A stretch of 64,000 nt of DNA from Acidobacteriaceae bacterium (lineage in GTDB: Bacteria; Acidobacteriota; Terriglobia; Terriglobales; Acidobacteriaceae). Of the stretch, positions 4,410 to 28,892 are shown one piece after another; positions within the stretch are counted from its first letter, which is position 1, and every line of letters starts with the position of its first letter. The DNA is taken from NCBI GenBank assembly GCA_025361625.1, contig JANYKL010000017.1, positions 10,033 to 74,032 of the forward strand. Reading direction: 5' to 3'. Position numbers and translations under genes: made by a program. The notes beneath the pieces were generated by a model. It was not told the origin of the DNA and ran no database searches. It saw only the letters and a list, made by a program, of their open reading frames with translations.

Positions 4410-4753
4410 GCTGCACTCCTCAGAGATTTTCATAATGATCAAAACAAATGAAGCCCACGCGCGCCGCGAAACTTTCAAAATTGCGTTTGCGTAAGACTCC
4501 TGAAGTCAGGTGCTTGCAGAACATTTTTATTCTCGGTAAAGTGGTCCAACCACCCACCAGCGGCTGGATATTACTACCCCAAGTTACGAAGTGCAAGAGG
4601 GAACGCCGTATTTTTTTACAAATATTTTACAATTTATGATTTTTCAGAGGCTGCCCCAAAGCACAAATCTTTACATAGGAGGCGCGGGGATCCGGTTGAC
4701 ATCAAACGCCGCGAAGTATAAGACTCAGCTTCAAAGTGCGGGGGAGTTAGGTT

Positions 4754-5695
4754 GTGAACGCTGGCAAAATCGTTAGGACGATCGAGCGTCGCGCGGGGCT
4801 GATGATTGCAGCGTTTTTGCTCACAGCCATCCCTGTAACGCCCGCGCTGGGCCGAGAGAAGAACGTCTTACAATACGGGGCCGGCCTAATCGTCAACATA
4901 CCGTCTCCGACGGACGAAGTTGCTCAAGCAGTCGAAGAAGTCGCGCAAAACACGATCATCCGGGGAACCAAGGAATACAACAAAGACGAATATGTGAAGG
5001 GTGCTGAGCAAGCGCAATCGACACCCGTCTTCCCAAAGTGGACGGATGGCGGCAAGGTTTTCTACAAGGTCCGCCTGCATGCGCTGAACCCGTTGAATTT
5101 CAAAAACAGCAACGATGCCGGAACTCTCGCCGTCCGCTACGTGGTTCAACCCCAAGGGGAGAAAAACACTGTGCTGCGCATCGACGCGGTTTTTGTCGAG
5201 GAATTTCGACGAACTGTTCACCAGTCGAATGGCTCGGTCGAGAGCAGCGAGTACAAGGACATACAGGATCGCGTTCAGGCAGCGGAGCTCCTGAAAAAAG
5301 AGACGGCAGAGGCTTTGGAAGCGAAGCAGGAGCACGACACCAAGCAAAAATTTGAGATGGAGAGCAACGCAAACGTTGCCAGCACACCTTCCCCTGACGC
5401 GGAAGCAAAGAGCGCAGCGGCGGAGGCGAGCACTTACGAAAATTCCGTATTGCGCGAAACGGGCGTGTCGCTCGAACAGCATGTTGCCGATCTGCGGCGT
5501 GAAGTGCAGCGCCTGGTGAGGCAACCAGGGGCACCTCTCAAGTCGGCACCCTTCCGCACGGCCAGCACGCTCAGTTCGCTCGATCCGGGAGCGGAGGTCT
5601 TGATTGTCATTTCAACCCGCTACTGGTACGGGGTCGAGACGCACGACGGCCAGCATGGCTGGCTTCGCCGTGATCAGTTGGAAGAAGTGCGATGA
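4754..5695 (+). CDS. hypothetical exported protein, central coiled-coil, C-terminal SH3b-like segment
   Basis: GTG start preceded by GGGGGAG. Hydrophobic N-terminus (RRAGLMIAAFLLTAIPVTPALG). Charged coiled-coil region. C-terminal VLIVISTRYWYGVETHDGQHGWLRRDQL resembles bacterial SH3. ATGA overlap with the next gene. Confidence 0.5.
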   Translation: MNAGKIVRTIERRAGLMIAAFLLTAIPVTPALGREKNVLQYGAGLIVNIPSPTDEVAQAVEEVAQNTIIRGTKEYNKDEYVKGAEQAQSTPVFPKWTDGGKVFYKVRLHALNPLNFKNSNDAGTLAVRYVVQPQGEKNTVLRIDAVFVEEFRRTVHQSNGSVESSEYKDIQDRVQAAELLKKETAEALEAKQEHDTKQKFEMESNANVASTPSPDAEAKSAAAEASTYENSVLRETGVSLEQHVADLRREVQRLVRQPGAPLKSAPFRTASTLSSLDPGAEVLIVISTRYWYGVETHDGQHGWLRRDQLEEVR

Positions 5696-7161
5696 ATCGC
5701 TTCCGTGTGATCTTTGGTGTCATCTGGGGTGTGATCTCGCGGCGCAGCTTTTTATCTTCGGGACTGGCTCTTGGATTGTGGCTGCAGGGGCCAATTGTTG
5801 CCGCACAGAATGCGAGACAATCGGTGGCCACCGCGGCGCAGGTATCGGCCGTCGAACGCACTTTTGCGCTGCCAAAAATCAAAGTTGAAAAGGCTTTGAA
5901 AGAGTTGCAGGCGTCCTTGAGCGGCAGGCTCCCTGCCCTTGATGGATTTGCGGTCGAAGGACAACACCCGTTGTCTCGATATCAGCGCGGATATTATCAA
6001 TCCTCCGTGCAGATCGTTCCGGCTGCCGGTGGAGGATCGACTGTTCGGGTGACGACGAAAGTGACGGCATGGTACGCAGATAAGACTGCCGGGCGATCGG
6101 GCTACCAGTTACTGACTTCAAACGGACGGCTGGAGGCTGACCTTCTAGACCAAATTTCTGACGTTTTAGGCAACACTGTAAGCGCGACTTCCGCTGACGG
6201 CGCATCAGGCTCCGCAGCGAGCGGCTCCGCAGCGAGCGGCACCGCGCGCGAGCCAGCGCCAAGCTCTACAACCAGTCAGACGGCAGCAACGAAAAACGAG
6301 AATCATGGGAGCGATTGGTCAGCAATTTCCGCACCGGGGCCTCGCTCGGGTAAGTCGGCGCCATTCGCTTCTCCGCAGCAATCTCCGTCGCACTCTCCGT
6401 CGCAATCTGTGGGGCTCTCCAGGGACCAACTGGCGGAAACAAAGGGCGCGCAACGGCTGCCTGGCAGCAGCTCCGGAAACACCCTGCAGGCGCAAGCAGC
6501 GGCGCTCGAAGAAGTTCTGAAGAATCAAGCGCATCCCAAAAATCTTGTGGCCATCAAAAAGTCTGGAACGCCGGTTGTGGCGACACCTAGTTTAAGCGGC
6601 AAAACGCTTTTTATGGCGAGCGCTGAAGATGAATTCGAGATGCTCGATTTTAATGCCGACTGGGTGCACGTTCGTATCTCGGGCTTATCGCGCGGCTGGA
6701 TCTGGCGCACGAGCTTAGAGATGCCGGAAGGAATCTCGGATGTTCCGAAGGTCGCCGCTACGGGGGCGGGTGTGATCGCGGATCTATTTCAGGTATCACG
6801 AGAAGAAACGGCGCCTTTCCCGGGTGATTGGGCTCCGCTGCGGGGGAAGAACGTAAAAATCATCTCGGTGCAAAAAATCCAGGAGAACAGCACGAATTCA
6901 GGACCACAGGCCAAGTTGGAATACACGAAGTCGTTGCTCGAGAAAAGTTATGCGGAGCTGTCGTCCAAGGGTCAGGAATTAGCCGGCATTGTCTTGATCT
7001 TCGATTCCATCGACGGCGGAATGATTGCTGCTACGCTGCCAACGGTAAGAGCCTGGAAGGCGGGCACATTGTCGGACGCCGCACTATGGCATCAGTGCTA
7101 TTTTGATCCTCCAGAGACATTCACCGTTTCTTCTTCTCCTTCTCCTGGGGCCGGGCAATGA
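5692..7161 (+). CDS. hypothetical protein with twin-arginine (Tat) signal, Ser/Ala/Pro-rich linker and SH3b-like segment
   Basis: N-terminus has SRRSFLSSGLALGLWL, matching the S/T-R-R-x-F-L Tat consensus. Low-complexity GASGSAASGSAASG...SPQQSPSHSPSQS. DWVHVRISGLSRGWIWRTSL is SH3-like. Start overlaps the upstream stop (ATGA at 5692). Confidence 0.55.
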   Translation: MNRFRVIFGVIWGVISRRSFLSSGLALGLWLQGPIVAAQNARQSVATAAQVSAVERTFALPKIKVEKALKELQASLSGRLPALDGFAVEGQHPLSRYQRGYYQSSVQIVPAAGGGSTVRVTTKVTAWYADKTAGRSGYQLLTSNGRLEADLLDQISDVLGNTVSATSADGASGSAASGSAASGTAREPAPSSTTSQTAATKNENHGSDWSAISAPGPRSGKSAPFASPQQSPSHSPSQSVGLSRDQLAETKGAQRLPGSSSGNTLQAQAAALEEVLKNQAHPKNLVAIKKSGTPVVATPSLSGKTLFMASAEDEFEMLDFNADWVHVRISGLSRGWIWRTSLEMPEGISDVPKVAATGAGVIADLFQVSREETAPFPGDWAPLRGKNVKIISVQKIQENSTNSGPQAKLEYTKSLLEKSYAELSSKGQELAGIVLIFDSIDGGMIAATLPTVRAWKAGTLSDAALWHQCYFDPPETFTVSSSPSPGAGQ

Positions 7162-10323: not shown

Positions 10324-11537
10324 TCAGCTTGCGGCTTGATCGCGGAGTGAACTCTTGAGTGGGGCGCTAGCGCGAATCGTGGTTCCTTCTTCATTGGTGG
10401 CTATGCTGAAGTCTCCGCCAATCTGCCTCATTCGTTCGTGCATGCCCATAATTCCGACGCCGGGCCTGAAGGCTTTTCCAGGTAACTCATCGGAAGATTG
10501 CTTGCCGGTGTCGGTGATCTCCACATGAACCTGATCTTGCGAGGACAGCAAGCGTATCAGCGCGGTCGTGCTCTTCGAATGGCGATGGATATTCGTCAAT
10601 GACTCTTGCACAACGCGAAAAAGTGCAATTTCAATCTCAGGAGGAAGACGGTGTATTTCCGGACTGACTTCTAACTCGACTTTGATACCGCTGCGAAGCG
10701 AAAATCCCTCGGTGTACCAGCTCAGTGCTGATTGCAATCCAGTCTCGTCAAGAAGTGGCGGGTGGAGCAGGTAAGACATGGTGCGAAGCTGGCGGCTCAT
10801 CTCTTCGGTGAGAACCAGACTGTCGGCCACCAAGCTTTTTGTCTCCTCGTCGACACCGTCGGTTTTTGAAGAGACGACATCGAGATTGATTTTCAGAGCC
10901 GCCAGCATCTGGCCAGTGCTGTCGTGCAGTTCGCGGGCCAACCGTCTTCTCTCATCATCTGCGATTTCAAGAGGCGACCGGTCAACTCGCGGATTTCTTC
11001 GGTCTTGGCGGCGAGTTCGGCGGTTCGCTCGCGGACGCGGCGCTCGAGTTCGTCGTGCGCTTTTTTCAACTCGAGTCTTGCCCGTTCCGTCTCGGCCGTC
11101 TGCAACCTGGCTTCTCGTTCGGCCTGCTTCATGCGAAGTAAAGCGCCGACCGTCGCGAGCAACTCATTGCCGGAGATGGGCTCGGCAAGGTAGGCGTCTG
11201 CACCGCCTTCGAGGCCGCGGACGCGGTGCTCGGCATCCACGAAGGTGGCCGAGATATGCAGGATCGGAATGTGAGCGGTCTGCGGATTGGATTTTAAACG
11301 CCGGCAAACTTCGAAGCCGTCGAAGTCGGGAAGATTGAGGTCGAGGGTAATGAGATCCGGAAGTTGATCGGCAAGGCGCAAAGCTTCGGTACCATTGCGA
11401 GCCTCAGTTACGGTATACCCGCCGCTTCGCAGAGTTCGGGTTAAGGTATAGCGCAGCGCGTCGTTATCATCGACGGTGAGGATGGTAGCGTTCATCGGAA
11501 TTGATGCGTTTTGATTCATTCGACGGGCATAACCCAT
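10324..11537 (-). pseudogene. REC - coiled-coil - HisKA_3 - HATPase_c hybrid response regulator/histidine kinase, split by a 1-nt frameshift (or a sequencing error)
   Basis: ORF 10893..11537 is a receiver domain (ILTVDDNDALRYTL...DLNLPDFDGFEV...) plus coiled coil, ending ...TGRLLKSQ then out-of-frame MMREDGWPANC. ORF 10324..10941 continues in another frame as (IA)DDERRRLARELHDSTGQMLAALK plus HATPase_c. Joined at about 10960 the product reads LLKSQ-DDERRRLARELHD, the canonical HisKA_3 H-box. Confidence 0.7.
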
Positions 11538-11546
11538 ATTCCAGTT

Positions 11547-13685
11547 CTAAGCACGCACTTCGTCTGCAACGTGAACTCCGAATGGCAGGCCCGCGCGCGA
11601 CAGGGCTTCAGCAATCCGGACTTCAGCCATTTCACGCGACCCCGTGCCCTTGAGCACGATGTCAGCGGCAGCCTTTAACTGTTCTCTTTCCTCTTCTCGC
11701 AAATCCTGAGAAGTATGAATGATGACGGGAATCTGCCTGGTTTGTGGATCTTTTTTGAGAATATCAAGGACCTCAAAGCCGCTCAAATCCGGCATAGAAA
11801 TGTCGAGCATAATCACGCTGGGCATCATTTCCTTTGCCATTCGAATGCCTTCTTTGCCACCGCTCGCCTCCAGGAGGCTGTACCTGCTGTTGGCGAGCGC
11901 TCCCTTCAGGAGATATCGTGATACCTCATCGTCATCGATGATGAGGACGTGTTCGCTGGTCGGCTTGAGGGTGCTTTGCAGCTGCTGCAATAGCCATCCG
12001 CGATCGATCGGCTTGGAGTGGAATGCGGAGGCGCCAAGTTGGAGCGCCTTTTGCTGATTCTCGACCACGGTGACGACCAGAACTGGAATATCTTTGGTAG
12101 CGGGATCGCTTTTCAAATCCTGCAACAGATCCCAAGAATGCTCCCCTTGCAGAAGAACGTCGAGGACGATCGCTACCGGCTTGAATTCGTGCAAGGCTCG
12201 CCGTGCTTCTTTCAGATCGCGCGCAGGAACAACTTGAAATTCTGTTTCCTTCAAATATTTTTCATAGATGAATAGGGCCTCGCGATTGTCTTCGACTACC
12301 AGCACTGGAAGCTTCGAAATGTCCAGTTCGCGATGCACGTCGGGAACATAAACAGCGTCGATTTCGCCATGGAAGCGCACGGGGACGGAAACAAAAAACG
12401 TTGAGCCGATTCCGACTTCGCTTTTCACATAGACGTCCCCGCCAAGCAACTGCGCCAATTTGCGGGAGAGCGGAAGGCCGAGGCCGGTTCCCTTCGCCAT
12501 TTTTTGGAGCTTGCCTTCGACCTGCGTCCATTCCTCGAAAATGCGCTCCTGATTTTCTTCGCTGATTCCAATTCCGGTGTCAGCCACGGCAAAGACTGCA
12601 GTGTTGTCGTGACTCATACGAACCGAGACGCGCACTTCGCCGCGCTCGGTAAACTTCAGTGCGTTAGAAATAAAATTACGAAGAATCTGGGATACTTTCG
12701 CTTCATCGCTGAACAACTCAGGAATTCCCTCCGGTTCGTCGAAGACCAGCGATACCGAAGAATTCTGCGACAAGAGAGGCCGCAACATGCCGCGCAGAGC
12801 CGCGAATAGAGATTCAACGCTAAACGGGGCGGGCCGGATCGTGACCTTGCCAGCTTCAACTTTTGCCAGGTCAAGGAGGTCGTTCACGAGATCGGTAAGG
12901 TCCTGGGCCGAGCGGCGAATAAAGTTGACTTGCTTTTCCTGTTCGGAAGTGAGATCGCCGTCCATGCGATCGAGCAAGATCTGGCTGAGGGCGAGCACGG
13001 AATTGAGTGGCGTTCTGAATTCGTGACTCATATTAGAAAGGAAGTGAGTCTTTAGTTCTGAAGCGCGCTGCAAGAAGTCAGCTTTGTCGTTGAGCTCCGC
13101 ATACAAAGCGACTACGCCACGATTGGTTTCATCGAGCTCCCGATTGAGCTGCGCGAGTTCGTTTTGACGGGCGCGTAGTTCTTCAAGCGTGCGCAGGAGC
13201 TCTTTATTCTGGTGTTCCAGTTCTTCATAAGGATTCTCCGAACGCCTGCGTTCGATTGTGCCCATGAATGCGTTCAGTTCCGCATCGTTTAACTTTGAGA
13301 ACCTTTGAGGTATTGCTTTTCCGAGGGTGACGACCGTGCCTTTGCCGGCCGCGCTCTGCACTTCAAATCTGTCCATCAGGCGCTTGGCGCCGATCATGCC
13401 CACGCCCATGCCGGTCTTCGAGACATACTTGCCGCCCAGAATTTCATCGACATTCGGGATGCCTCGTCCCTTGTCTCGAATGGTGACAAAAAATATTCTC
13501 TCGGCTCCGCTGTGGTAGGTAAACTCCACTAGCCCGCCGCCGGCGTACTCGAAACAGTTGCGGGCAATCTCGGAAACGGCGGTGGCGATTCGCGTCTGAT
13601 CCTGGATATCAAACTTGAGGAAAGCGGCAACAGAACGAGCACGCTGGCGAGCGAGCACGACGTCGTGCTCGAAGCGAATCTCCAT
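11547..13685 (-). CDS. hybrid sensor histidine kinase: N-terminal RsbW/RsbT-like ATPase domain, coiled coil, HisKA, HATPase_c, two receiver domains
   Basis: N-terminus RIATAVSEIARNCFEYAGGGLVEF...GMGVGMIGAKRLMDRFEV is anti-sigma-kinase-like. H-box FLSNMSHEFRTPLNSV. G-boxes DTGIGI and GTGLGLPLS. Two REC domains (VLVVEDNREAL..., VLIIDDDEVSRYLL...DISMPDLSGFEV). Start is ambiguous: ATGs at 13685, 13706 and 13715. Confidence 0.85.
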   Translation of the reverse strand: MEIRFEHDVVLARQRARSVAAFLKFDIQDQTRIATAVSEIARNCFEYAGGGLVEFTYHSGAERIFFVTIRDKGRGIPNVDEILGGKYVSKTGMGVGMIGAKRLMDRFEVQSAAGKGTVVTLGKAIPQRFSKLNDAELNAFMGTIERRRSENPYEELEHQNKELLRTLEELRARQNELAQLNRELDETNRGVVALYAELNDKADFLQRASELKTHFLSNMSHEFRTPLNSVLALSQILLDRMDGDLTSEQEKQVNFIRRSAQDLTDLVNDLLDLAKVEAGKVTIRPAPFSVESLFAALRGMLRPLLSQNSSVSLVFDEPEGIPELFSDEAKVSQILRNFISNALKFTERGEVRVSVRMSHDNTAVFAVADTGIGISEENQERIFEEWTQVEGKLQKMAKGTGLGLPLSRKLAQLLGGDVYVKSEVGIGSTFFVSVPVRFHGEIDAVYVPDVHRELDISKLPVLVVEDNREALFIYEKYLKETEFQVVPARDLKEARRALHEFKPVAIVLDVLLQGEHSWDLLQDLKSDPATKDIPVLVVTVVENQQKALQLGASAFHSKPIDRGWLLQQLQSTLKPTSEHVLIIDDDEVSRYLLKGALANSRYSLLEASGGKEGIRMAKEMMPSVIMLDISMPDLSGFEVLDILKKDPQTRQIPVIIHTSQDLREEEREQLKAAADIVLKGTGSREMAEVRIAEALSRAGLPFGVHVADEVRA

Positions 13686-13696
13686 GGTGATGAATT

Positions 13697-14731
13697 TCAG
13701 TTGCATGGACCGCACGCATCTTCGCGATTCTTAGCGACCAGTACTGTTACATCATCCCGTTCCCGCGAAAAATCGCGGAAAAGTAACCCTGCCATCAGCG
13801 CGGGATGCCTGCTCCAAATCCCTGGGTAAGGCTTGAGATCCCAACGTGTATTCACGCCGTCGGAGTGCATGATCAACATGCTTTCCTTTGCCCATGGAAA
13901 CGTAAATTCCTGAACTTTCTGAATTTGGTGGCCTACAATGCCGTTGTGCGAAGCCATTCCGCGCCTGGTAGCGGGAGCGATTATTGAGGCTGAAATATTT
14001 CCGACGCCGGCGAATTTCATGATGCCGCGCTCGAGGTTGAGGGAAGCGACGGCCATGGCGGCGCCCCGAGTTTTTTTGAGTGCGTCGTGCGCATCCTGCA
14101 AAATCATTGCGGGCGAGTCGGTTCGGGATGCGGTAAAAACTCGTTCGGCCTCACGAGCGGCTTCCGCCGCAAGAATGCCGTGTCCCAAGCCATCGACGAC
14201 CATAAGCAGGACAGACTCGGCCGTTTCTTTCGCACCCCATCCATCTCCGCAATCCTGCTCGCCCTTGATGGGAATGGATACCACGCCGACGTCGAGTCCA
14301 GAGGCGTGCCTGGAAATTTTGTTGCTCGACCAGACTTCAGCGAGCACGGCGGTACCGGCTCCGGGAACGGTATAGATATCAAACACGTCTGAAAGCCGCT
14401 TAATCGCGCCGAGGCCGTTTCCGGCAGTTCCTGCCGTGGAGTGGCCATCTTGAAGGGCGGCTGTGAGGTCTTTTATTCCAGCGCCTTTATCCAAGGCCAT
14501 CACTCGAACACCGCAGTCGTTAAGGCACCCGAACGATTCGAGGATCACCGTGCCGGAGCCGGCATGCTTGACAATGTTAGAAACAATTTCCGTGACAACA
14601 ATCGCCAGCGCTCCGCGAGGACGTTCCTCGAAGTTAAGTTTCTCCGAGTAAACTGCGGCGTGGCGCCGGGCCTCTCCGGCGTGACTGGCATCAGTGACTT
14701 GGATGATCATGCTCAGTGGTACTACTTCCAT
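13697..14731 (-). CDS. ATP-binding (RsbW-like kinase domain) SpoIIE/PP2C family protein phosphatase
   Basis: The N-terminal domain AIVVTEIVSNIVKHAGSGTVILE...GNGLGAIKRLSDVFDIYT is HATPase_c_2-like. The C-terminal half has CGDGWG...LLMVVDGLGHG...LIMHSDGV, matching PP2C/SpoIIE motifs. Alternative ATG at 14710. Confidence 0.85.
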   Translation of the reverse strand: MEVVPLSMIIQVTDASHAGEARRHAAVYSEKLNFEERPRGALAIVVTEIVSNIVKHAGSGTVILESFGCLNDCGVRVMALDKGAGIKDLTAALQDGHSTAGTAGNGLGAIKRLSDVFDIYTVPGAGTAVLAEVWSSNKISRHASGLDVGVVSIPIKGEQDCGDGWGAKETAESVLLMVVDGLGHGILAAEAAREAERVFTASRTDSPAMILQDAHDALKKTRGAAMAVASLNLERGIMKFAGVGNISASIIAPATRRGMASHNGIVGHQIQKVQEFTFPWAKESMLIMHSDGVNTRWDLKPYPGIWSRHPALMAGLLFRDFSRERDDVTVLVAKNREDACGPCN

Positions 14732-15123
14732 CTAGTAATTATGATTTTCGTCCCTTGGCCGACTTTGGACTCGATTGCAAACTCGTTGACCAAACGTTTG
14801 GTGCCGCCTAAGCCGAGTCCAAGACCGGAGCCCGTGGTAAAACCGTCCCGAAGTGCTAGTTGGATGTCAGGGATGCCCGGGCCGTTGTCACTGAACGTAA
14901 GACGGACTCCCAGGCGGGGACCGTTCAGGCTTTCCAGTTGCATGGCGCCCCCCCCACCATAGATCAGCGTGTTTCGGGCTAGTTCACTGGCGGCAGTGAC
15001 GACCTTGGTCTGATCGACGAGGCTCAAACCGATTTGCGCGGCGGTTTCGCGCACCCGTCGGCGCACGAAAACAATATCTGGCTCGGAAGTGACGGGAATG
15101 GTCTCGCTAGAAATTACTGCCAT
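14722..15123 (-). CDS. rsbT: stressosome switch kinase, RsbT-like anti-sigma regulatory factor (Ser/Thr kinase)
   Basis: 133 aa, the same size as RsbT. VVTAASELARNTLIYGGGG...DNGPGIPD...GSGLGLGLGGTKRLVNEF. Overlaps the RsbS stop by 17 nt. Confidence 0.85.
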   Translation of the reverse strand: MAVISSETIPVTSEPDIVFVRRRVRETAAQIGLSLVDQTKVVTAASELARNTLIYGGGGAMQLESLNGPRLGVRLTFSDNGPGIPDIQLALRDGFTTGSGLGLGLGGTKRLVNEFAIESKVGQGTKIIITRWK

Positions 15124-15496
15124 GGCGGATTCCCTCGTGGCCGTTCAGCGATTCCCGCAGCAATTCCATTCCGGCATCTACATTGAGTGCGGTACGCACT
15201 CCGGGCAGAGACATACCTAATTCGACCAAAGTGATGGCGACGGCAGGCCGCATTCCGACGACAACCGTTTGCGCATCAAGGACGCGCGACATGGCTGCGA
15301 TGTTGCCCAGCATGCGGCCAATAAACGAATCCACAATCTCAAGCGAGGAGATGTCGATCAGGACTCCCCGAGCACTCGTCTCGCTGATTTTTTGCGTCAG
15401 ATCGTCCTGCAGAGCCATTGCAAGCCGATCGTGCATGTCGACTTGAATGGTGACGAGCAGAAAGTCTCCCATTCGCAGAATCGGTATCTTTTCCAA
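15107..15496 (-). CDS. rsbS: stressosome STAS-domain antagonist, RsbS-like
   Basis: 129-aa single STAS domain. IPILRMGDFLLVTIQVDMHD...GVLIDISSLEIVDSFIGRML, with the conserved phosphorylatable Ser in the VDSF context. Confidence 0.85.
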   Translation of the reverse strand: MEKIPILRMGDFLLVTIQVDMHDRLAMALQDDLTQKISETSARGVLIDISSLEIVDSFIGRMLGNIAAMSRVLDAQTVVVGMRPAVAITLVELGMSLPGVRTALNVDAGMELLRESLNGHEGIRHGSNF

Positions 15497-15504
15497 AAGT
15501 TATC

Positions 15505-16392
15505 CTATGCGGTCTTTTGCGCTGTGTGATTCGACGTACGTCCTAATGACAATCCCGTTCGCTGCAATGCGAGGCGGAATGCATCGGAGAGCGTGGCCTT
15601 GGTCGTGACGTCCAAGAGGTTGATTCCGAGATGCACGATGGTCTGCGCAATTTGCGGGCGAACGCCACTGATGATGCAGTCCGCGCCCATCAAACGGGCC
15701 GCGGTCACGGTCTTCAGAAGGTGTTGAGCGACGACGGTATCGACCGTAGGCACGCCCGTTATATCGATGATCGCAACTTTCGAATTCGTCTTAACAATGC
15801 TTTCGAGCAGCGTCTCCATGACGACTTGCGTGCGTGCGCTGTCGAGGGTACCGATGATTGGAAGAGCAAGAATTCCGTCCCACAGCTTGACCACCGGGGT
15901 CGAGAGTTCGAGCATCTCCTCCTGCTGGCGGCGGATCACGGCGTCGCGGGTCTTGATATAGGTCTCAATCGTGTAGAGGCCGAGGGAATCGAGCAATGCG
16001 GTGGCGCTCCAAAGTTCGGTGGCGAGCGCATCCGCGTCTTTTTCGAAGCGTGTTCGAATCGCCTTAAAGAGAGGCTTCTTGAATGAAAGTACGAACGTGG
16101 CGGTCTCGGTTGGAGTGAATCCTTGTTGCGCCCGGCTTCTAGAAATTTCGGCCAGAAGTTCGCGCATCGGCTGCCAGGCCGCGCCGTCAATGTCGTATCC
16201 GCCTGAGTCGACACCCTGCCGCAACAACTTCAAAAACAGGGCGCTTTCGCTGCGGAGCTCAGATTCTTTAATCAAATCGCTGCGGCGAACGCTGCCGCTC
16301 ATTTCTTTCAGCCAGTCTGCAAGAAGGGAAGACTCATCCTTTGTGAGGATTTCGCTGAGACCCGCCTGTCGATTCTGAAGTCCTTTATCCAT
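15505..16392 (-). CDS. rsbR: stressosome sensor/scaffold protein, RsbR-like (N-terminal non-haem globin-type domain plus STAS)
   Basis: C-terminal STAS: STPVVKLWDGILALPIIGTLDSARTQVVMETLL...IIDITGVPTVDTVVAQHLL...GVRPQIAQTIVHLG. About 150-aa N-terminal helical sensor domain. Confidence 0.85.
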   Translation of the reverse strand: MDKGLQNRQAGLSEILTKDESSLLADWLKEMSGSVRRSDLIKESELRSESALFLKLLRQGVDSGGYDIDGAAWQPMRELLAEISRSRAQQGFTPTETATFVLSFKKPLFKAIRTRFEKDADALATELWSATALLDSLGLYTIETYIKTRDAVIRRQQEEMLELSTPVVKLWDGILALPIIGTLDSARTQVVMETLLESIVKTNSKVAIIDITGVPTVDTVVAQHLLKTVTAARLMGADCIISGVRPQIAQTIVHLGINLLDVTTKATLSDAFRLALQRTGLSLGRTSNHTAQKTA

Positions 16393-16551
16393 GTCTCACA
16401 TCCTAGAGCGCACCATGAGCGCGCTTTTGTCGGACCTATGCGGCCTACGAAAATACCCTATTCGCTGCTCGCCGAATTTAAGATTATAAAACTAACAGCG
16501 GTTGGGTCAAAAAGAACGTCCTATGCCGAACAATTCTGCAACTTGCCGGGA

Positions 16552-17481
16552 TTAGTTGACCGGCGCTTCCTCTGATCTGATTGACTGCCCCGTCCGTTCA
16601 AGCGCCAAGGCGAAAGCGTCTCTCAGGGTGGCCTTGGTGGTGATGTCGAGCAGATTTATTCCAAGATGAACAATGGTTTGAGCGATTTGAGGACGAATGC
16701 CGCTGATAATGCATTCCGCACCCATCAGGCGGGCGGCAGTAACCGTCTTCAACAGGTGCTGCGCCACCACGGTGTCTACGGTTGGCACCCCAGTAATGTC
16801 GAGGATAGCAACCCTGGAGTTCGTCTCGACAATCGCGCCGAGCAAAGATTCCATTACAACCTGTGTGCGGGCACTGTCGAGAGTTCCGATCAGCGGGAGG
16901 GCAAGAATATTGTGCCAGAGCTTGATCACTGGAGTGGACAGTTCAAGCATCTCTTCCTGCTGCCGTCGAATGATTGCTTCGCGCGTATCGAGCCACAGTT
17001 CCGTGGCATAGAGCCCGAAGCTGTCAAGAAGTTCGGTCGTTTCCCAGATTTGGGAGGCCAGCACCAGCGGATCTTTCTCCGCTTGTCTCAGACGGTGATA
17101 CAGCGGTTTTTTGAAAGAGAAGACAAAGGCAGCAATCTCGATGGCTGTAAAGCCCTGGAGAGCGCGACTCTTCGATACGTCAGCTAGAAGACCGCGGAGG
17201 TCGTCCCATTGCGGGTCGGAGGCTTTGCCCACCACTCCGGATTGCACTCCCTTCCGGAAGGAGGCCAAGAAGTTTGCGCACTGCAGCCGAAGCTCCGGTT
17301 CCGGGGCCATCGCGGTGTTGTGCTTTAACAAACGAGCGTCGTCCACCCACTCTTTGAGGAAGGAATCTTCGTCGGCGGCGAGAACCTCTGCGATAACACT
17401 ACCGGTGCTGAGGGCTTGAACCAAGAATCCTCCTTCCACGCGGTTGCAAAAGTCCGGCAACGTGGCCTGAAAAAGTAACAT
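16552..17481 (-). CDS. rsbR: second RsbR-like stressosome sensor paralog
   Basis: STAS domain nearly identical to the 15505..16392 product (STPVIKLWHNILALPLIGTLDSARTQVVMESLL...ILDITGVPTVDTVVAQHLL). The N-terminal domain is diverged. The true start may be internal. Confidence 0.8.
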   Translation of the reverse strand: MLLFQATLPDFCNRVEGGFLVQALSTGSVIAEVLAADEDSFLKEWVDDARLLKHNTAMAPEPELRLQCANFLASFRKGVQSGVVGKASDPQWDDLRGLLADVSKSRALQGFTAIEIAAFVFSFKKPLYHRLRQAEKDPLVLASQIWETTELLDSFGLYATELWLDTREAIIRRQQEEMLELSTPVIKLWHNILALPLIGTLDSARTQVVMESLLGAIVETNSRVAILDITGVPTVDTVVAQHLLKTVTAARLMGAECIISGIRPQIAQTIVHLGINLLDITTKATLRDAFALALERTGQSIRSEEAPVN

Positions 17482-18469: not shown

Positions 18470-19366
18470 TTAAGCAGCCCGGCGTTGCACTTGCGTGTCG
18501 GCCTGGTCCACCTCGCCCCTGTCGGCTGCCTCGATGATCCAATTCAATTCTGCTCCAATCAAGATGGCAAAGCCCGTAATGAAAAGCCACAGAAGCAAAA
18601 TTACGACGGCACCGAGCGATCCATAGGTGGCGCTGTAGGAATTAAAGAAGTGCAAGTAGGCCCGAAATCCCAAGGAGGCGGCGATCCAGATGATCACGCC
18701 GAGCGCGGCTCCTGGAGTCACCCAATGCCATGAGTCTTTAATATTTGGGGCAAAGAAATAAACGACCGAGAATGACAGGAACATGGCAATAAAGGGGAAC
18801 ACCCACTGAGCCACCCGCCATACGTTGGTAAATAAGTCACCGAGCCCCATCTGCGAAGCGATCAATTGCCCAATTTTGCCGCCGTACAACACAAGCGCGA
18901 GAGCAGCGATAATGAACGATGCCAGAGCGACCGTCAAAGCGACCGCGATAAGCTTCTGCTTCCACCATGGGCGCGTTTCTGTGACTTTATGGATAACGTT
19001 CAATGAGACTACGAGCGCGCTCAATCCCGAGGAGGCTGCCCACAGCGCGCCTAACATTCCGGCGCCAACCTTCACGCCACTGCTTGCCTTTGTCGTCTCA
19101 GTAAGTACGCTCTGAATCAAACTTGATGCCGACCCGGGCACCATTTGGCTAAGCGCGCTCAGAATGCCCTGCCGCATTTCAGAATTCGGCCCGGCGAAGA
19201 GCCCCATGAGGGATAAAAGAAAAAGAAACATTGGGAAAAGAGCGAGGATGAAGTAATACGAGAGGGCAGCGGAGCGAGTTACGAGCTCATCTTCGCCTAA
19301 TTTTTTGTATGTACGTTTTCCCAGTTCGACCGCGCCGAGGGCTCCAAACTTCCACAACGAGGGCAT
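18470..19366 (-). CDS. YihY/BrkB family inner-membrane protein
   Basis: SAALSYYFILALFPMFLFLLSL, six predicted TM segments, and the YGSLGAVVILLLWLFITGFAILIGAELN C-terminal signature. Confidence 0.85.
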   Translation of the reverse strand: MPSLWKFGALGAVELGKRTYKKLGEDELVTRSAALSYYFILALFPMFLFLLSLMGLFAGPNSEMRQGILSALSQMVPGSASSLIQSVLTETTKASSGVKVGAGMLGALWAASSGLSALVVSLNVIHKVTETRPWWKQKLIAVALTVALASFIIAALALVLYGGKIGQLIASQMGLGDLFTNVWRVAQWVFPFIAMFLSFSVVYFFAPNIKDSWHWVTPGAALGVIIWIAASLGFRAYLHFFNSYSATYGSLGAVVILLLWLFITGFAILIGAELNWIIEAADRGEVDQADTQVQRRAA

Positions 19367-19640: not shown

Positions 19641-22600
19641 TTGTGCGGGAGTCCTGACATTTCTTTAAAAATTAGATTTGTAGAGGGACTTTTTTCCGCG
19701 GCCAGGAGGCGTCGCACGATCGCGCGTCCGGCAATCCTTTTAGTGTTCGTCATCGCCGCTTCCGCTTCGGCACAGATGACCACCTTGCGCCCGCAGGCGG
19801 TGTATGACGGACAAAATGTCGACGCTATCGATCTAATTGGAAACCCCCATCGCGATCTCGCCCCGCTACGCGCCGTTCTGGTCCAAAAAGCTCATCAGCC
19901 TTATTCCCAATCGCAGGTGGAAGACTCGATTCGCGCGCTTCAGCGAGCCGGTAATTTCCCCAAGGTGGATGTGGAGGTGGTTCCGAATCCGTCGGGATTG
20001 CGGCTTGATTTTCTCCTCGAGCCGGCCTATTACCTGGGCGTTCTGGATTTTCCAGGAGCGGTCAAGCAATTTTCTTACACGCGCTTGATGGAGGTCGTCG
20101 ATCTGGCGGATGAAGACCCCTACGATCCCGGTCGCCTTCCCCTCTCAGAGAAGGCATTACAAGAATTTTTGAAGACGAACGGATACTTCCGCGCGACGGT
20201 TCAGGCGCACGCCGACATAGACGATGAGCATCAACTGGTCAACATCACCTTTAACGTCGCTCTGGGCAAGCAGGCGCGTATAGCGAACGTCAACATCGAA
20301 GGTCCAGACCAGCCGGAAACAGCCAGCCTGTTGCGCGCGGTTCGATCTCTTCGTGCGCGACTCACTGGAGCGTTGCTCAAACCCGGCAGACCGTACACTG
20401 CCGAGAGATTAAAGGCTGCGACGGCGTTAATTAAACTGCGCTTGTCTAAGCGACGCAGGCTCGCCAGTTCGGTGAAAATGAATCCTCCGCTGTTTCATCC
20501 GGAAAGTAATCGTGTGGACGTTTCTTTCAAAATAGAGCTTGGGCCTATCGTGGATGTTCGGACCGAGGGCGCAAAGCTCTCACCGATTCCCTTTCTGTCA
20601 GATCGCCAGATGAAGAGATTGATCCCCATTTATTCGGAGGGAACGATTGACCGCGATCTGGTGGAAGAAGGGCAACAAAACCTGATCGACTTCTTTCAGA
20701 AAAAGGGGTATTCGGACGCAAAGGTCGATATCGATTTCCAGAAACAAACTGACGAAATTCTTCTGGTTTACAAGATTGATCGTGGGAAAAAACACAAGGT
20801 CGAGGCCATAAGCTTCCACGGCAACCAACAGATTTCCGACGAAGACTTGCTCGCGGAGGTGACCATTAAGCGTTCACATCTTTGGTCGCATGGAACGGTC
20901 AGTCCGAAATTATTGAAGCAGAGCGTTGCGGGCCTGGAAGCAATTTATCGTGACAAGGGATACGAATCGGCGAAAGTAACGGCAAGAGTGGTTCCAGACG
21001 GACAGAAGTTACGGATCAACTTCGATATCGATGAGGGTCCTCCGACTCTGGTCGACAATGTTGAAATTAGCGGCAACATCAGCGTTCCCGCGAATGAACT
21101 TGCGGCGCCTGCCGGCTTTCAACTTCGGCCGGGCGGCCCATACTCACCGCGCCGCCTGTCTGACGATCGGAATCGCATCACCGCCACTTACTTGAATCGG
21201 GGATATTTGAACGCCGATGTGAAGGCGACCATTACGCGCCGCTCCGACGATCGCCACCGGGTCATCGTGTCTTACATCATTGATGAGCGACAACGTGTGA
21301 CCGTGAACAGCGTTCTTTTTCTCGGACAGAAACAGACACGTGTCGACCTGATTGCTAAAACCGCGAGGGTTCCGGTAGCGGCGCCGATGCGCAAGGGTGA
21401 GTTATTGCAAGCGGAGAGCCATCTTTACGACTTGAACATTTTCGATTGGTCGAGCGTTGGTCCGGAGAAACCTATCGCCGAGCAGACCGAAGAGCAAGTG
21501 CTGGCAAAAGTTCATGAAGCGAAGCGAAACGATCTGACCTATGGATTTGGCTTTGAGGTGGCACGGCGCGGGGGCAATGTTCCGTCGGGGACGGTTGCGG
21601 TGCCGGGGCTTCCGCCAGTCGAATTAGGCAAAAACAAGCTGGCGCAAAGCGAGGCTACTTTCGCCAGTCCTTTGGGCTCGATTGAATACACGCGCCGCAA
21701 TATGCGCGGACTGGGCGAGACCGCCAGCGGCACTGTAGTTCTCGCGCGCCTCGACCAACGATTAATTACGACCTACGCACAACCTCGGTTCCTCGGATCG
21801 CAGTGGAGTTCGCTTGCCAGTTTCTCGATCGAAAGAACGAGCGAGAACCCCCTGTTTACGGCCCGGTTGGGCGATCTATCGTTTCAGGTTGAGAAACTTA
21901 TCAGCAAAAAACGCAGCACGCGCTTGCAGTTGCGATACGATTTCAACAAAACGCAGTTATCGCATCTTTTGGTGCCGGAATTGGTTCTTCCACGAGACCG
22001 CAGCGTACGGTTATCGACGGTCTCGGGGACGTTGATTCAAGATACGCGGGACAAACCGCTGGACGCCCACCGCGGGACATTTTCAACTGTCAACCTTGGA
22101 ATCACCCCTACGGCATTCGGGTCGAGCGCAAATTTCACGAAGCTGTTTGCCCAGTATGCTTACTACAAGGAACTGCACGCGGTGGTTTTTGCCAACAGCA
22201 TCCGTCTGGGCCTGGCGTCGCCTTTTGCCGGAAGTTTTGTTCCTACGAGCCAGCGCTTTTACTCTGGCGGCGGAACCTCTCTGCGCGGATTCCCAATCAA
22301 CGAAGCTGGGCCGCAACGCCTGGTACCGTTCTGCGGCGTGCTTTCAAATCAGACTGGATGCGTCAACGTGACGGTTCCGGTCGGCGGCCGTCAGCTCTTT
22401 ATTCTGAACTCCGAGGCGCGCTTTCCGCTCAAGATTATGAAGCCCCTCGGTGGAGTTGTTTTCTATGACGGCGGAAATGTATACAGCGCCATTAACCTGA
22501 AGAACTTTGTGGACAATTACAGCAATACCGTGGGCGTGGGCTTGCGCTATTCCACCCCGATCGGGCCCATTCGCATTGACATTGGGAAAAATCTAAATCC

Positions 22601-22655
22601 TGTACCTGGAATCAAATCGACCCAGTTCTTCATTACCCTGGGCCAAGCCTTTTAG
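19641..22655 (+). CDS. BamA/TamA (Omp85) family outer-membrane protein with an extended POTRA array
   Basis: Repeated POTRA-like units (e.g. ARIANVNIEGP, HKVEAISFHGNQQISDEDL, TLVDNVEISGNISVPANEL, VTVNSVLFLGQKQT). C-terminal Omp85 barrel (RFYSGGGTSLRGF, GGVVFYDGGNVY, VGVGLRYSTPIGPIRIDIG, terminal F). TTG start uncertain. Confidence 0.85.
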   Translation: MCGSPDISLKIRFVEGLFSAARRRRTIARPAILLVFVIAASASAQMTTLRPQAVYDGQNVDAIDLIGNPHRDLAPLRAVLVQKAHQPYSQSQVEDSIRALQRAGNFPKVDVEVVPNPSGLRLDFLLEPAYYLGVLDFPGAVKQFSYTRLMEVVDLADEDPYDPGRLPLSEKALQEFLKTNGYFRATVQAHADIDDEHQLVNITFNVALGKQARIANVNIEGPDQPETASLLRAVRSLRARLTGALLKPGRPYTAERLKAATALIKLRLSKRRRLASSVKMNPPLFHPESNRVDVSFKIELGPIVDVRTEGAKLSPIPFLSDRQMKRLIPIYSEGTIDRDLVEEGQQNLIDFFQKKGYSDAKVDIDFQKQTDEILLVYKIDRGKKHKVEAISFHGNQQISDEDLLAEVTIKRSHLWSHGTVSPKLLKQSVAGLEAIYRDKGYESAKVTARVVPDGQKLRINFDIDEGPPTLVDNVEISGNISVPANELAAPAGFQLRPGGPYSPRRLSDDRNRITATYLNRGYLNADVKATITRRSDDRHRVIVSYIIDERQRVTVNSVLFLGQKQTRVDLIAKTARVPVAAPMRKGELLQAESHLYDLNIFDWSSVGPEKPIAEQTEEQVLAKVHEAKRNDLTYGFGFEVARRGGNVPSGTVAVPGLPPVELGKNKLAQSEATFASPLGSIEYTRRNMRGLGETASGTVVLARLDQRLITTYAQPRFLGSQWSSLASFSIERTSENPLFTARLGDLSFQVEKLISKKRSTRLQLRYDFNKTQLSHLLVPELVLPRDRSVRLSTVSGTLIQDTRDKPLDAHRGTFSTVNLGITPTAFGSSANFTKLFAQYAYYKELHAVVFANSIRLGLASPFAGSFVPTSQRFYSGGGTSLRGFPINEAGPQRLVPFCGVLSNQTGCVNVTVPVGGRQLFILNSEARFPLKIMKPLGGVVFYDGGNVYSAINLKNFVDNYSNTVGVGLRYSTPIGPIRIDIGKNLNPVPGIKSTQFFITLGQAF

Positions 22656-22665
22656 GAGTTTTGCG

Positions 22666-25600
22666 GTGGTCATGAAATGGCGAGAAATTGTTGGTTGGGC
22701 GGTCGCAGGATTGTTGGCGCTCGTCATTCTTGCGGTGCTGGGCGGATATGTTTTCTTGAAATCAAATCGCTTTCAGCAGATGGCAATCCGCCGCGTTACG
22801 CAGGCGACAGACGAGGCGACCGGCGGCAAAAGTGAAATTCGGGCGCTGAATCTCAACTTACGCCCACTACAGGTCCATCTGTTCGACGTGAAAATCCATG
22901 GGACTGAGCCCGTGGGGCAGCCGCCGCTTCTGCAGCTCGACAACCTTACTGTAGGGGTGACCGTTCAATCTCTCTTGCACCGAGAATTCAACTTCAACAA
23001 TGCCGTACTTGGCCATCCTGTCATATACGTGCGAACGAATCATGCAGGCGTAACAAATATTCCGCAATCCCGTGCGGCGAAACCTGCAAATCAACCGCGC
23101 ACCAACATTTTTCAATTAGCCGTGGGGCACTTCCAGATCGTGGACGGGGAATTGAATTACGACGACAAAAAGACTCCGCTCGACGCTGATCTTCGTCATC
23201 TTGACCTGAATGCGCATTTTGATTCGAGCACTCGGAGCTATGACGGAACAATCGCCTACGACGATGGCCATCTAAAATACGCGCAACTCGCTGTTCTTCC
23301 TCACAACCTGCGCGCCAATTTTAAGGCAACGTCAGTTGCCCTCAGGCTCGAACAGGCGAACTTGGCGCTCGGCGGGTCGACGGGAGCGCTGAATCTTAGC
23401 CTCACCAATTACAGCGAGCCGAGCATCGCAGGGGACTACAAGATTCGAGTTCACACCCAGGATTTCGCAGCGCTATCTGGAGGCACCAACCCTGCCGGGG
23501 ACGTCACACTCGTTGGCAAGCTCAGCATTCCGAATCTCAATGCGCCTGCGCTACTCAGCACCATCACCGCAGACGGATTGCTATTGACCGACGCGATTTC
23601 AGCGGTCGCAACAAAAGAGCGCATAGAAGTGCGAAGGTTACGCGGGAACTACCATCTGGCAAATGCATCGCTGCGGGCAACCGGAATCGGCCTTGAAGCT
23701 TTGGAAGGAACGATACAAGCGGACATTGGCGTTCAACACCTTGACGCTACTCCTTCGACGCAGGTGCGCGCAACATTCCGCAACATTTCGCTACATGCGG
23801 CGCAGCGGATTCTCGGGCGCCCCGAGCTCAAGCAGGTCTCGCTCTTAAGCAGGGTCGACGGCACAACCGACCTGTCATGGACGGACAGCATCAACAACCT
23901 TCGGGCAAGTTCCGATCTCAGCCTGCGTACATCAGCCGCGAACATCCAGGCGGGCGTGCAATCCGCCGCTAACGTGCCGGTCGATGGGGTTATACACCTC
24001 GCCTATGACGGGCCCAAAGGGACAATCGATCTGCACGACAGCGTCCTGAATATTCCCGCGACTCGAATTACGGCTCAGGGTGAGGTCAGCAAGCGTTCGA
24101 ATCTACGGGTTCATGCGACAACGAGCGATCTGCAAAAGCTTTCCGCTTTGATCAACGCCTTTCGGCCGGGAGCGATACCTTCGGCGATTTCAGGTTCGGC
24201 GAATCTGGCAGCGACTGTTCACGGGTCAGTGAAGAATCCAGACATAGATGGAGAGATTTCTGCCGAGAATTTTACTGTGCAAGGGAGCCAGTGGCGAAGT
24301 TTGCAAGGCAACTTCGAAGCAACTCCGGATGGAGTGACAATCACGGAAGGATCACTGGTCAATGCCAGGACGGGGCGGGCAACGTTCAACGCCACCCTGG
24401 GATTGCTCGAGTGGTCCTACTTGCCTTCGAACCCGATCAGGGCGACGATGTCGGTGCAGCAAGTCTCCATCACGGATCTGCAACAGCTTTTCAACTCGCA
24501 CTACCCTGTTTCCGGCGATATATCGGCGGGATTCTCGTTCAGCGGGTCGCAGCTTAATCCTCAGGGCTCCGGCACTTTAAAAATAGCGCGCGGGCGCGTC
24601 TACGACGAGCAACTGCAGAATTTCGCGATGAAATTCAGCGCCGACCACGAGACCATTCAAACTTCGTTGGATGTAGCCATTTCTGCCGGCGCGGCGACAG
24701 CCTATTTGTCGTTTTCTCCGGAAACGAAACGCTACAGCATGAACTTCGATATCTCGTCGCTGAGCCTGCAGAGACTGCGTTACGTGCATGATCGAAATTT
24801 GTTGGTTTATGGGTATCTGAGCGCATCCGCTAGCGGTTCAGGAACGATCGACAACCCCCAACTGAACGCCACCGTTCAGTTGCCTAAATTGACCTTGCGA
24901 GACAAATCGGTTTTTGGAGTCAAGGCGCAACTGAAGGTCGCGGACAAGCAGGCAGACTTCAATTTAGATTCTCTGGTGCTCGACGCATCGGTGCAAGCGC
25001 ACGGCAAAGTGAATCTCGAAGGCGGCTACTACACCGAGGCATCGCTCGATACGGCCTCGCTTCCGCTCGACGTTTTGCTCGCGCTCTATCTGCCAAATCT
25101 TCCGGAGGGAGTGAAGGGACAAACGGAATTTCATGCCCGTCTGGCGGGGCCGCTCAAAGATCCATCGCAAATCCGCGCTGACCTTACTATTCCGACTCTC
25201 AGTGCGAGCTACCAGAATTATCAACTTGGGTCGAATGGGCCGATTCGCGTGGAGTATGCAAAGTCGGTCATTACCGTCTTGCCGGCGGAAATTCAGGGAA
25301 CTGATACCTCACTTCGATTTCACGGGACCGTCCCCCTCGGAGGAAATGGGGCACCCTCATTCGAAGCACAAGGCTCGGTAAACATGCGGGCTCTGCAAAT
25401 GCTCTCGGGTGACATTCGAAGTTCGGGCAGCGTCACGGTCGATGTGAAGAGCTCCGGAGGCGCCGACCACCCAAATATAGCTGGCCAAATTCAACTGCAC
25501 GACGTCTCGGCGATTCAGGCGGGAGCGCCGCTTGGAGTAGAGAAACTGAATGGCAGCCTCAACATCGACAACGAGCGCATACAGCTCGAAGCATTAAGCG

Positions 25601-26592: not shown

Positions 26593-26677
26593 TCCATTTT
26601 TTGTTCTTGGCGTGGGGGCAAACTTCGAGCCGGGTTACAACCTTACCGAAGCCGTTAAGATCAAAGTTGCTGCGCCT

Positions 26678-28823: not shown

Positions 28824-28892
28824 AAGTTGGAGGAGCAACACGCCGTAGCGTGCCGTTTCATATTCAAATCGGTTAACGCTGAGGCGCCGAAA

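Follow-up and report, generated by a model that had tools for sequence, protein, structure and literature searches.

A Terriglobales stressosome cassette with RsbT-like heads on an RsbX-type phosphatase and a hybrid histidine kinase

Stressosomes are pseudo-icosahedral particles of approximately 1.5–1.8 MDa, formed by RsbR and RsbS, which sequester the kinase RsbT. They occur in many phyla, and how they signal is understood only for those with RsbU and sigma B as their output. Here we analyze a stressosome gene cluster of a soil Acidobacteriaceae bacterium (Acidobacteriota, Terriglobales), which lies in a stretch of 64,000 nt (hereafter the window) covering positions 10,033 to 74,032 of the forward strand of contig JANYKL010000017.1 (GenBank assembly GCA_025361625.1). 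In this cluster, the genes for RsbR, RsbS and RsbT are followed by a PP2C phosphatase and a hybrid histidine kinase (HHK), each of which carries an N-terminal kinase domain that scores as RsbT-type, and by a second histidine kinase whose reading frame is broken.

Gene content and layout of the cluster

Pfam and NCBIfam scans, together with the listing of open reading frames (ORFs), place seven consecutive signalling genes on the minus strand, and the Pfam search of all products bears out the domains that a preliminary description of the window had assigned to them. An RsbR paralogue (16552..17481) and RsbR (15505..16392, 295 aa), each with an RsbRD_N and a STAS domain, precede RsbS (15107..15496, 129 aa, a single STAS domain and a TTG start) and RsbT (14722..15123, 133 aa, a GHKL Ser/Thr kinase). 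Downstream lie the phosphatase with HATPase_c_2 and SpoIIE/PP2C domains (13697..14731 as the longest ORF), the HHK with HATPase_c_2, HisKA, HATPase_c and two receiver (REC) domains (11547..13715), and the second kinase (10324..11537), whose REC domain is split from its HisKA_3 and HATPase_c domains.

An 8-nt gap separates rsbR from rsbS, rsbS and rsbT overlap by 17 nt, and 159 nt lie between the RsbR paralogue and rsbR, all three as described before. The other junctions hinge on the choice of start codon. In the public gene calls, the phosphatase gene begins at 14710 (337 aa), and the 10-nt overlap with rsbT reported earlier becomes an 11-nt gap; an exact-sequence look-up of the 344-aa ORF was empty, and the 337-aa form with the public Met8 start was matched. 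The HHK starts at ATG 13706 in the public calls (719 aa; alternatives are GTG 13715 and ATG 13685), so that its overlap with the phosphatase gene, previously put at possibly 19 nt, is start-dependent and amounts to 10 nt with this start. The public starts of the RsbR paralogue and the REC ORF are 17424 (290 aa) and 11495 (200 aa), respectively.

The window scans reported here cover the 64-kb window, a part of the genome. Pfam and sequence scans found no sigma factor, RsbV or RsbW gene within the cluster, as the preliminary description had stated. No sigma domain occurs among the scanned ORFs of the window, and no further STAS, GHKL, PP2C, histidine kinase or REC match is present elsewhere in it. 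A tblastn sigma screen of the window and of the loci of relatives was also negative, at low sensitivity, with single provisional E. coli RpoE and B. subtilis SigB query sequences and with extracytoplasmic function (ECF) sigma factors being divergent. Furthermore, none of the eight products of the cluster ORFs has a Pfam match to RsbU_N (E ≤ 0.01).

A candidate sigma-70-type promoter of the six-gene core operon lies on the minus strand at 16483..16510, in the 159-nt gap upstream of rsbR (TTGACC-16 nt-TATAAT, 11/12 matches); promoter-like sites in the region are in total no more numerous than in shuffled sequence, and this site stands out only by match quality and position. Because of this promoter in the gap, and because the tandem second RsbR is found in only 18 of 76 relatives and is an optional member of the cassette, rsbR (16392) is probably the first gene of the core operon, and the paralogue an accessory gene in a transcription unit of its own. 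Terminator-like sites did not exceed shuffles, and none was convincing after the cassette.

The scaffold proteins are close to proteins of solved structure. RsbR matches Vibrio vulnificus RsbR (PDB 7O0I, 3e-36) and, over its full length, Listeria RsbR (9O3O/7B0U, 1e-31), and RsbS matches Listeria RsbS (6QCM, 7e-34), B. subtilis RsbS (6JHK) and Moorella MtS (2VY9). The RsbR motifs GTLDSAR, with Ser at the equivalent of B. subtilis T171, and GVPTVDT, with the equivalent of T205, are kept in 91–92 of 94 RsbR STAS domains. The phospho-acceptor Ser of RsbS (S59-equivalent) lies in VDSF, which aligns with Listeria IDSF and is present in 76 of 76 relatives. VDSF and VDTV, earlier named as the sites of the phosphorylated Ser and Thr, are invariant in the relatives. 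By sequence orthology, RsbR and RsbS are assigned to the structurally solved stressosome scaffold proteins, and their assembly into a stressosome is predicted from the same orthology; this closeness to the Vibrio, Listeria, Bacillus and Moorella chains upholds the earlier proposal of a stressosome-type RsbR/RsbS/RsbT module coupled to two-component proteins.

The RsbR paralogue (309 aa as the longest ORF) has an RsbRD_N sensor of the non-haem globin type, and shares 44% identity with the second RsbR in the N-terminal domain and 85% in the STAS domain; its gene call is found in the loci L001/L002. RsbT matches SpoIIAB in the PDB, the N-box, G1 and G2 motifs are conserved, and a hidden Markov model (HMM) built from its orthologues gives a provisional B. 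subtilis RsbT reference sequence 126 bits. By these motifs, RsbT is predicted to be an intact GHKL Ser/Thr kinase.

RsbT-type heads and the second kinase

The phosphatase departs from the single-domain RsbX of approximately 200 aa in its length of 337 aa and its extra N-terminal RsbT-like GHKL domain. This head (14327..14710, minus strand; HATPase_c_2, approximately residues 1–128 of the 337-aa product) shares 37.5% identity with RsbT over 88 aa, and its N-box EIVSN, G1 motif DKGAGI and G2 motif GNGLG are conserved across 79 orthologues. Its HMM scores B. subtilis RsbT at 99 bits, as compared with 20 for SpoIIAB (provisional RsbT reference). In the AlphaFold2 model of the phosphatase (predicted local distance difference test (pLDDT) score 77.5), the N-terminal half fits the SpoIIAB fold with a template modelling (TM) score of 0.69.

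The PP2C half (13697..14296, minus strand) has only two PDB sequence matches, Moorella MtX (3ZT9, 9e-14) and B. subtilis RsbX (3W40, 2e-12), and the same two structures are the top Foldseek matches of the model (TM 0.88 and 0.76, respectively); Rv1364c of M. tuberculosis (3KE6) is also among the Foldseek matches. The metal-site motifs VDGLGHG, HSDG and RDD are kept in 77–79 of 80 relatives. By sequence and modelled fold, the PP2C half classes as RsbX-type, and it takes the RsbX position of an rsbRSTX module. Because the domain is of the RsbX/MtX type on both counts and lies in this position, the phosphatase is most likely a feedback enzyme that acts back on the scaffold, not an output, which makes the earlier suggestion of a stressosome feeding the phosphatase unlikely.

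A comparable head is found on the HHK (13314..13706, minus strand; HATPase_c_2 at 2e-15, residues 1–131 from ATG 13706). It shares 36% identity with RsbT over 117 aa (88 bits), the closest of the three GHKL pairs, its N, G1 and G2 motifs are conserved, and its HMM scores B. subtilis RsbT at 107 bits and RsbW at 16 (provisional references). In all three GHKL modules, namely RsbT and the two heads, the N, G1 and G2 boxes are retained, as is the Arg that corresponds to SpoIIAB R20 and RsbT R19, and their HMMs give B. subtilis RsbT 99–126 bits, as compared with at most 35 bits for SpoIIAB or RsbW. The B. subtilis RsbT and RsbW reference sequences are provisional, and the RsbT numbering fits the residues R19/R23/N24 discussed in PMC12143880. 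Since the HMM scores favor RsbT over SpoIIAB and RsbW, we class the two extra heads as RsbT paralogues, in place of the RsbW-like kinases of the preliminary description.

The first 297 residues of the HHK were modelled with AlphaFold2 (model m054f7ec30438, pLDDT 82). A single helix, residues 159–245, is predicted to run into the H-box MSHEFRTP, corresponding to a signalling helix at 12972..13232 (minus strand) that leads from the head to the dimerization and histidine phosphotransfer (DHp) domain. In the model, this head–helix–DHp arrangement has the geometry commonly seen where a sensor domain drives a DHp domain, and the only sensor domain recognized in the HHK by sequence is the RsbT paralogue. 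The HisKA and HATPase_c core and the two C-terminal receivers follow at 11547..13052 on the minus strand, with REC1 at approximately 11961..12323 and REC2 at approximately 11616..11954. The H-box is found in 74 of 75 relatives, and REC1 and REC2 each have the conserved receiver Asp. The best NCBIfam matches are hybrid kinases of the TorS/ArcB/BarA type, all below cut-off.

The segment 10324..11537, previously taken for one REC-HisKA_3 gene, is 1214 nt long and consists of two ORFs in different frames. The 5' fragment (10893..11537, minus strand) encodes the REC domain and a coiled coil and ends in a frameshift tail, in which LLKSQ is followed by MMREDGWPANCTTALARCWRL and a stop. The 3' fragment (10324..10941, minus strand; 205 aa if TTG 10941 is the start) encodes HisKA_3, from four residues before the His, and HATPase_c, with best NCBIfam matches to kinases of the MctS/UhpB/NarX type below cut-off. 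Comparison with the intact 391-aa orthologue of a relative (L003) shows that an ancestral CAG GAT GAT GAG became CAGATGATGAG by loss of one G at 10957..10960 on the minus strand, the missing base falling between 10959 and 10958. The deletion sits 11 codons upstream of the codon of the phospho-accepting His (10924..10926), and adding back one G restores a single 404-aa REC-HisKA_3-HATPase ORF.

The same deletion allele is present in the metagenome-assembled genome (MAG) GCA_043724225.1 and in the Logan assemblies of SRR22198308, SRR23617163, SRR23617164 and SRR23617167. Because an identical product recurs in several independent sequencing runs, the deletion is a genuine allele of this population, and an assembly error is an unlikely cause. 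Among the relatives, the second kinase is a single ORF in 66 of 71; the five split ones all come from long-read (MFD) MAGs, and these splits are probably indel errors of long-read assemblies.

The receiver of the second kinase is atypical. It keeps the phospho-accepting Asp, and the canonical Lys is replaced by Glu (YLAEP in the motif GADAYLAEP). All versions of the cassette that were examined, among them the loci L083, L085, L089 and L091, have Glu, His or Gln in place of this Lys. No Hpt domain was matched by Pfam in any product of the cluster or found among the annotated neighbours in relatives. The term phosphorelay in the preliminary description is therefore loose, and the arrangement is better described as a kinase-to-kinase chain from the HHK to the REC-headed kinase; the output chain as drawn there is not intact in this genome, its terminal kinase being frameshifted.

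Distribution and genomic neighbourhood

The kinase–RsbX fusion has thousands of relatives in the databases. At E ≤ 1e-30 there are 1,270 clusters at 50% identity, of which the best 150 consist throughout of full-length proteins with two domains, and relatives occur in the genomes of at least 255 species. Database annotation names the fusion an 'ATP-binding SpoIIE family protein phosphatase' throughout and leaves the mechanism unaddressed. The core cassette has the order RsbR-RsbS-RsbT, RsbT-like::RsbX, RsbT-like::hybrid histidine kinase and REC-headed second kinase. In a domain-level tblastn analysis of 80 loci, the order RsbR-RsbS-RsbT-phosphatase is kept in 76 of 77 loci and the downstream order to the second kinase is complete in 71 of 74. 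This arrangement is far beyond chance. The same cassette is also found at approximately 40% identity, and it is present in the cyanobacterium Phormidium tenue, where the last gene encodes a REC-PAS-HisKA-HATPase-REC protein, in a Burkholderiales-type MAG and in Gemmatirosa (Gemmatimonadota). The RsbT-headed kinase comes next after the RsbT-headed phosphatase in all contexts that were sampled. The flanking genes vary among relatives, and the cassette is therefore self-contained. It is a dominant stressosome type in soil Acidobacteria, and the cyanobacterial carrier P. tenue FACHB-1052 is available in culture.

Within the cassette, conservation is highest in the STAS scaffold. Median identities are 89% and 85% for the STAS scaffold, 82% for the kinase core, 77% for RsbT, and 64% and 53% for the heads, a gradient in sequence that fits a scaffold surface shared by many partners.

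A paralogous REC-PAS-HisKA_3 kinase adjoins the cassette in 21 of 80 loci, on either side and on either strand, and a REC-GerE (LuxR-type) regulator follows this kinase in the two loci that were checked (L025, 7725..10071; L064, 6053..8220). These neighbours are a plausible transcriptional output tier and are absent from the window. In the locus of GCA_035627155.1 (L087, 5938..7253), a stand-alone receiver gene and a divergent REC+GerE regulator lie ahead of the Burkholderiales-type cassette. In the loci L003/L009 (approximately 11005..13162; contig_8978, 4.7 Mb), the HHK gene is split into calls of 87 aa and 648 aa inside the RsbT-like head, probably by an indel error of a long-read assembly.

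Within the window, the cassette is flanked by housekeeping genes, namely rpsA, a ctaB-like gene, and genes for a FAA hydrolase, BrkB/YihY, Omp85/TamB, alaS and recX. A pair of the translocation and assembly module (TAM) type, consisting of an Omp85/POTRA protein (1004 aa) and a TamB-like protein (1308 aa), lies within 19641..27634 and is bracketed by two genes for BrkB/YihY-family membrane proteins (18470..19366, minus strand; 26531..27634, plus strand). At 27690..29942 on the minus strand, a gene for a type III polyketide synthase (chalcone/stilbene synthase-like, 349 aa) adjoins one for an FAD-binding monooxygenase-like protein (383 aa), which could form a small alkylresorcinol or pyrone-type biosynthetic pair. 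A large protein of 1442 aa, probably secreted or located at the surface, is encoded at 49243..53571 (plus strand); it contains DUF7948, several domains of the Ig-like type (ASH/HYDIN/DUF1573) and SBBP beta-propeller repeats. Three ORFs, 2982..4478 (498 aa), 4754..5695 (313 aa) and 5692..7161 (489 aa), had no Pfam match at the thresholds used and adjoin genes for a cytochrome oxidase subunit II-like and a haem O synthase-like protein; the 489-aa product has a Ser/Ala/Pro-rich low-complexity sequence.

Proposed signalling route and relation to known systems

We consider it fairly probable that the cluster is the Terriglobales copy of a widespread, self-contained rsbR-rsbS-rsbT-rsbX module with a two-tier histidine-kinase output, in which the heads of the phosphatase and the HHK dock on the STAS scaffold. 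To our knowledge, every characterized kinase of this family (SpoIIAB, RsbW, RsbT, SypE and HsbR) binds and phosphorylates a STAS protein. Because the family kinases act on STAS partners, and because RsbR and RsbS are the only STAS proteins present in the window, both heads are proposed to dock on the RsbR/RsbS scaffold, where they would compete with free RsbT. The phosphorylation of the scaffold would be set by RsbT, and possibly by the heads as well, and reset by the tethered RsbX domain. Its state may then decide whether the HHK is held on the stressosome or released from it. Binding would be passed through the signalling helix to switch His autophosphorylation, and the phosphoryl group would move to the receivers of the HHK itself and/or to the Lys-less receiver of the second kinase, which in turn may control an unlinked regulator of the NarL/LuxR type.

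A different route would follow from the model of the preliminary description, according to which stress frees RsbT, and RsbT then binds and activates the heads of the phosphatase and the HHK, the heads being RsbT receptors that replace the N-terminal domain of RsbU. In favor of this route, a free RsbT is kept beside both heads in 76 of 77 loci, and none of the products has an RsbU_N domain that could receive it. GHKL anti-sigma kinases such as SpoIIAB form dimers, which makes heterodimers of RsbT and a head conceivable. Heinz et al. (PMC9237108) found no stable interaction between RsbT and a kinase in Vibrio. This route is nevertheless unlikely in our judgment. The heads still have complete ATP-binding motifs and the Arg that contacts STAS, which would be superfluous in a mere docking module, and activation by released RsbT is not the expected logic for an RsbX-type phosphatase that acts on the scaffold itself. 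We also know of no precedent for RsbT binding another GHKL domain. Still less probable is that the heads act outside the cassette, as anti-sigma-like kinases or as Ser/Thr kinases of a general kind, on targets such as an RsbV-like STAS protein, receivers or an unlinked sigma factor, with the stressosome and two-component genes only loosely connected. The heads are predicted by sequence to be active kinases, and with the view confined to 64 kb of the genome, unlinked RsbV, RsbW and sigma genes are possible. Against this, the six genes are nearly invariant in their synteny, lie close together or overlap, and stay together in different phyla. By score, the heads are RsbT-type instead of RsbW/SpoIIAB-type, and the flanks sampled in relatives showed neither a sigma gene nor an additional STAS gene.

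For this genome, the fate of the last tier must also be weighed. The HisKA_3 kinase ORF is not intact; its H-box and HATPase_c domain are present and its frame is split. Because the 3' fragment can start only four residues before the His and no frameshift-prone sequence is present, the last signalling tier is predicted to be probably inactive or altered in this population. The split kinase might still work, either as a free receiver with coiled coil plus a truncated HisKA_3 kinase or through ribosomal frameshifting, leaving the pathway intact. Both fragments are otherwise free of stops and damage, several sequencing runs show the allele to be established in the population, and free-standing receivers adjoin the cassette in one relative (L003). 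We regard this as quite improbable, however, since the sole start of the kinase fragment would remove most of DHp helix 1, the orthologues are intact apart from those of the indel-prone long-read MAGs, and no slippery heptamer lies at the break, for which reason programmed frameshifting was rejected. The frameshifted last kinase is in this respect a small natural experiment on the dispensability of the final tier.

Several points weigh against docking of the heads on the scaffold and the chain drawn from it. The docking step is argued from the behaviour of the family, and the typing of the heads used provisional B. subtilis RsbT and RsbW references. The retention of free RsbT in nearly all loci would be needless if the heads had replaced it, and fits RsbT acting on the heads equally well. 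The second-kinase receiver lacks the canonical Lys, which makes ordinary phosphotransfer to it uncertain, and the window contains no cognate DNA-binding regulator of the REC-GerE type. Moreover, the architecture may already have been catalogued in the survey of Pane-Farre 2005.

Beyond the docking proposal, the cassette may represent a distinct stressosome class, an extension that we put forward tentatively. Its scaffold would be read by three competing RsbT-family modules, namely free RsbT, the RsbT-headed RsbX and the RsbT-headed histidine kinase, and STAS occupancy or phosphorylation would gate His-Asp signalling without an adaptor of the RsbU_N type. If this is true, the fusion would serve as a 'Rosetta stone', indicating that RsbT-type/STAS interfaces connect sigma B-less stressosomes to their downstream kinases. 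The idea of a stressosome without a sigma factor has been put forward before, and the fusion offers a direct handle on the contact between stressosome and kinase.

Modules of the rsbRSTX type are found across phyla with two-component, c-di-GMP or PP2C outputs and a single-domain PP2C as RsbX, and how RsbT reaches kinases without RsbU_N is unresolved, the interaction between RsbT and kinase having gone undetected in Vibrio (Heinz et al. 2022, PMC9237108). The link between scaffold and kinase in modules with two-component neighbours is thus an acknowledged gap, for which the fusion gives a testable hypothesis. The present cassette resembles the Vibrio vulnificus VvRsbRSTX-D1-D2 modules, in which rsbR-rsbS-rsbT are followed at once by an RsbX-type PP2C and then by histidine-kinase/receiver proteins, sigB, rsbV, rsbW and rsbU are lacking, and the scaffold is close to ours (VvRsbR/VvRsbS). 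It differs from modules of this type in that RsbX carries an N-terminal RsbT paralogue and is not single-domain, and in that the kinase head is an RsbT paralogue instead of PAS, RsbU_N or none; the RsbR sensor is a non-haem RsbRD_N domain, as opposed to the haem globin of V. vulnificus.

With the sigma B pathway of B. subtilis and Listeria, the cassette shares the families RsbR (with paralogues), RsbS, RsbT and RsbX and the sites equivalent to S59 and T171/T205. Unlike that pathway, it has no RsbU_N phosphatase, RsbV/RsbW or sigma factor in the cassette or the window, and its output is His-Asp signalling. The MtR-MtS-MtT-MtX-MtG system of Moorella thermoacetica (Quin et al. 2012) provides the closest solved relative of the PP2C domain, MtX, and likewise has a non-sigma output directly downstream. 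In Moorella the output is reportedly a diguanylate cyclase whose RsbU_N domain receives MtT, and MtX is said to be single-domain. By comparison, the output here consists of histidine kinases instead of an RsbU_N diguanylate cyclase, and the phosphatase has two domains.

The combination of a GHKL Ser kinase and a PP2C domain on one polypeptide is shared with Vibrio fischeri SypE, P. aeruginosa HsbR and M. tuberculosis Rv1364c. In SypE (RsbW-like kinase-REC-PP2C), kinase and PP2C on one chain act on one STAS protein, SypA, and in the known fusions both halves act on the same STAS substrate (PMC12826045). The present fusion has no receiver or PAS domain between the halves, its domain order and its PP2C subfamily (RsbX-type) differ, and its presumed substrate is a stressosome scaffold, not a single free STAS protein. 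The phosphatase having no receiver domain, the resemblance to SypE and HsbR is functional and is not one of membership. Histidine kinases with RsbU_N domains that adjoin rsbT, in which an N-terminal module and a helical linker lead into the catalytic dimer (2025, PMC12143880), are likewise wired to the stressosome. The module here is a copy of RsbT, not a receptor for it, so that its contact, be it to STAS or to RsbT, would be of another kind.

Papers on photoglobin and on Vogesella TciR were ruled out as descriptions of the cassette, since they concern other architectures. Our literature searches, which did not cover the Pane-Farre 2005 comparative survey, gave no description of a fusion of RsbT paralogues to RsbX and to an output kinase, in agreement with the earlier statement that the output chain is uncharacterized. 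On our best reading, an rsbRSTX module with a two-component output is a system of known kind, of which the RsbT-headed RsbX together with the RsbT-headed kinase forms an undescribed variant.

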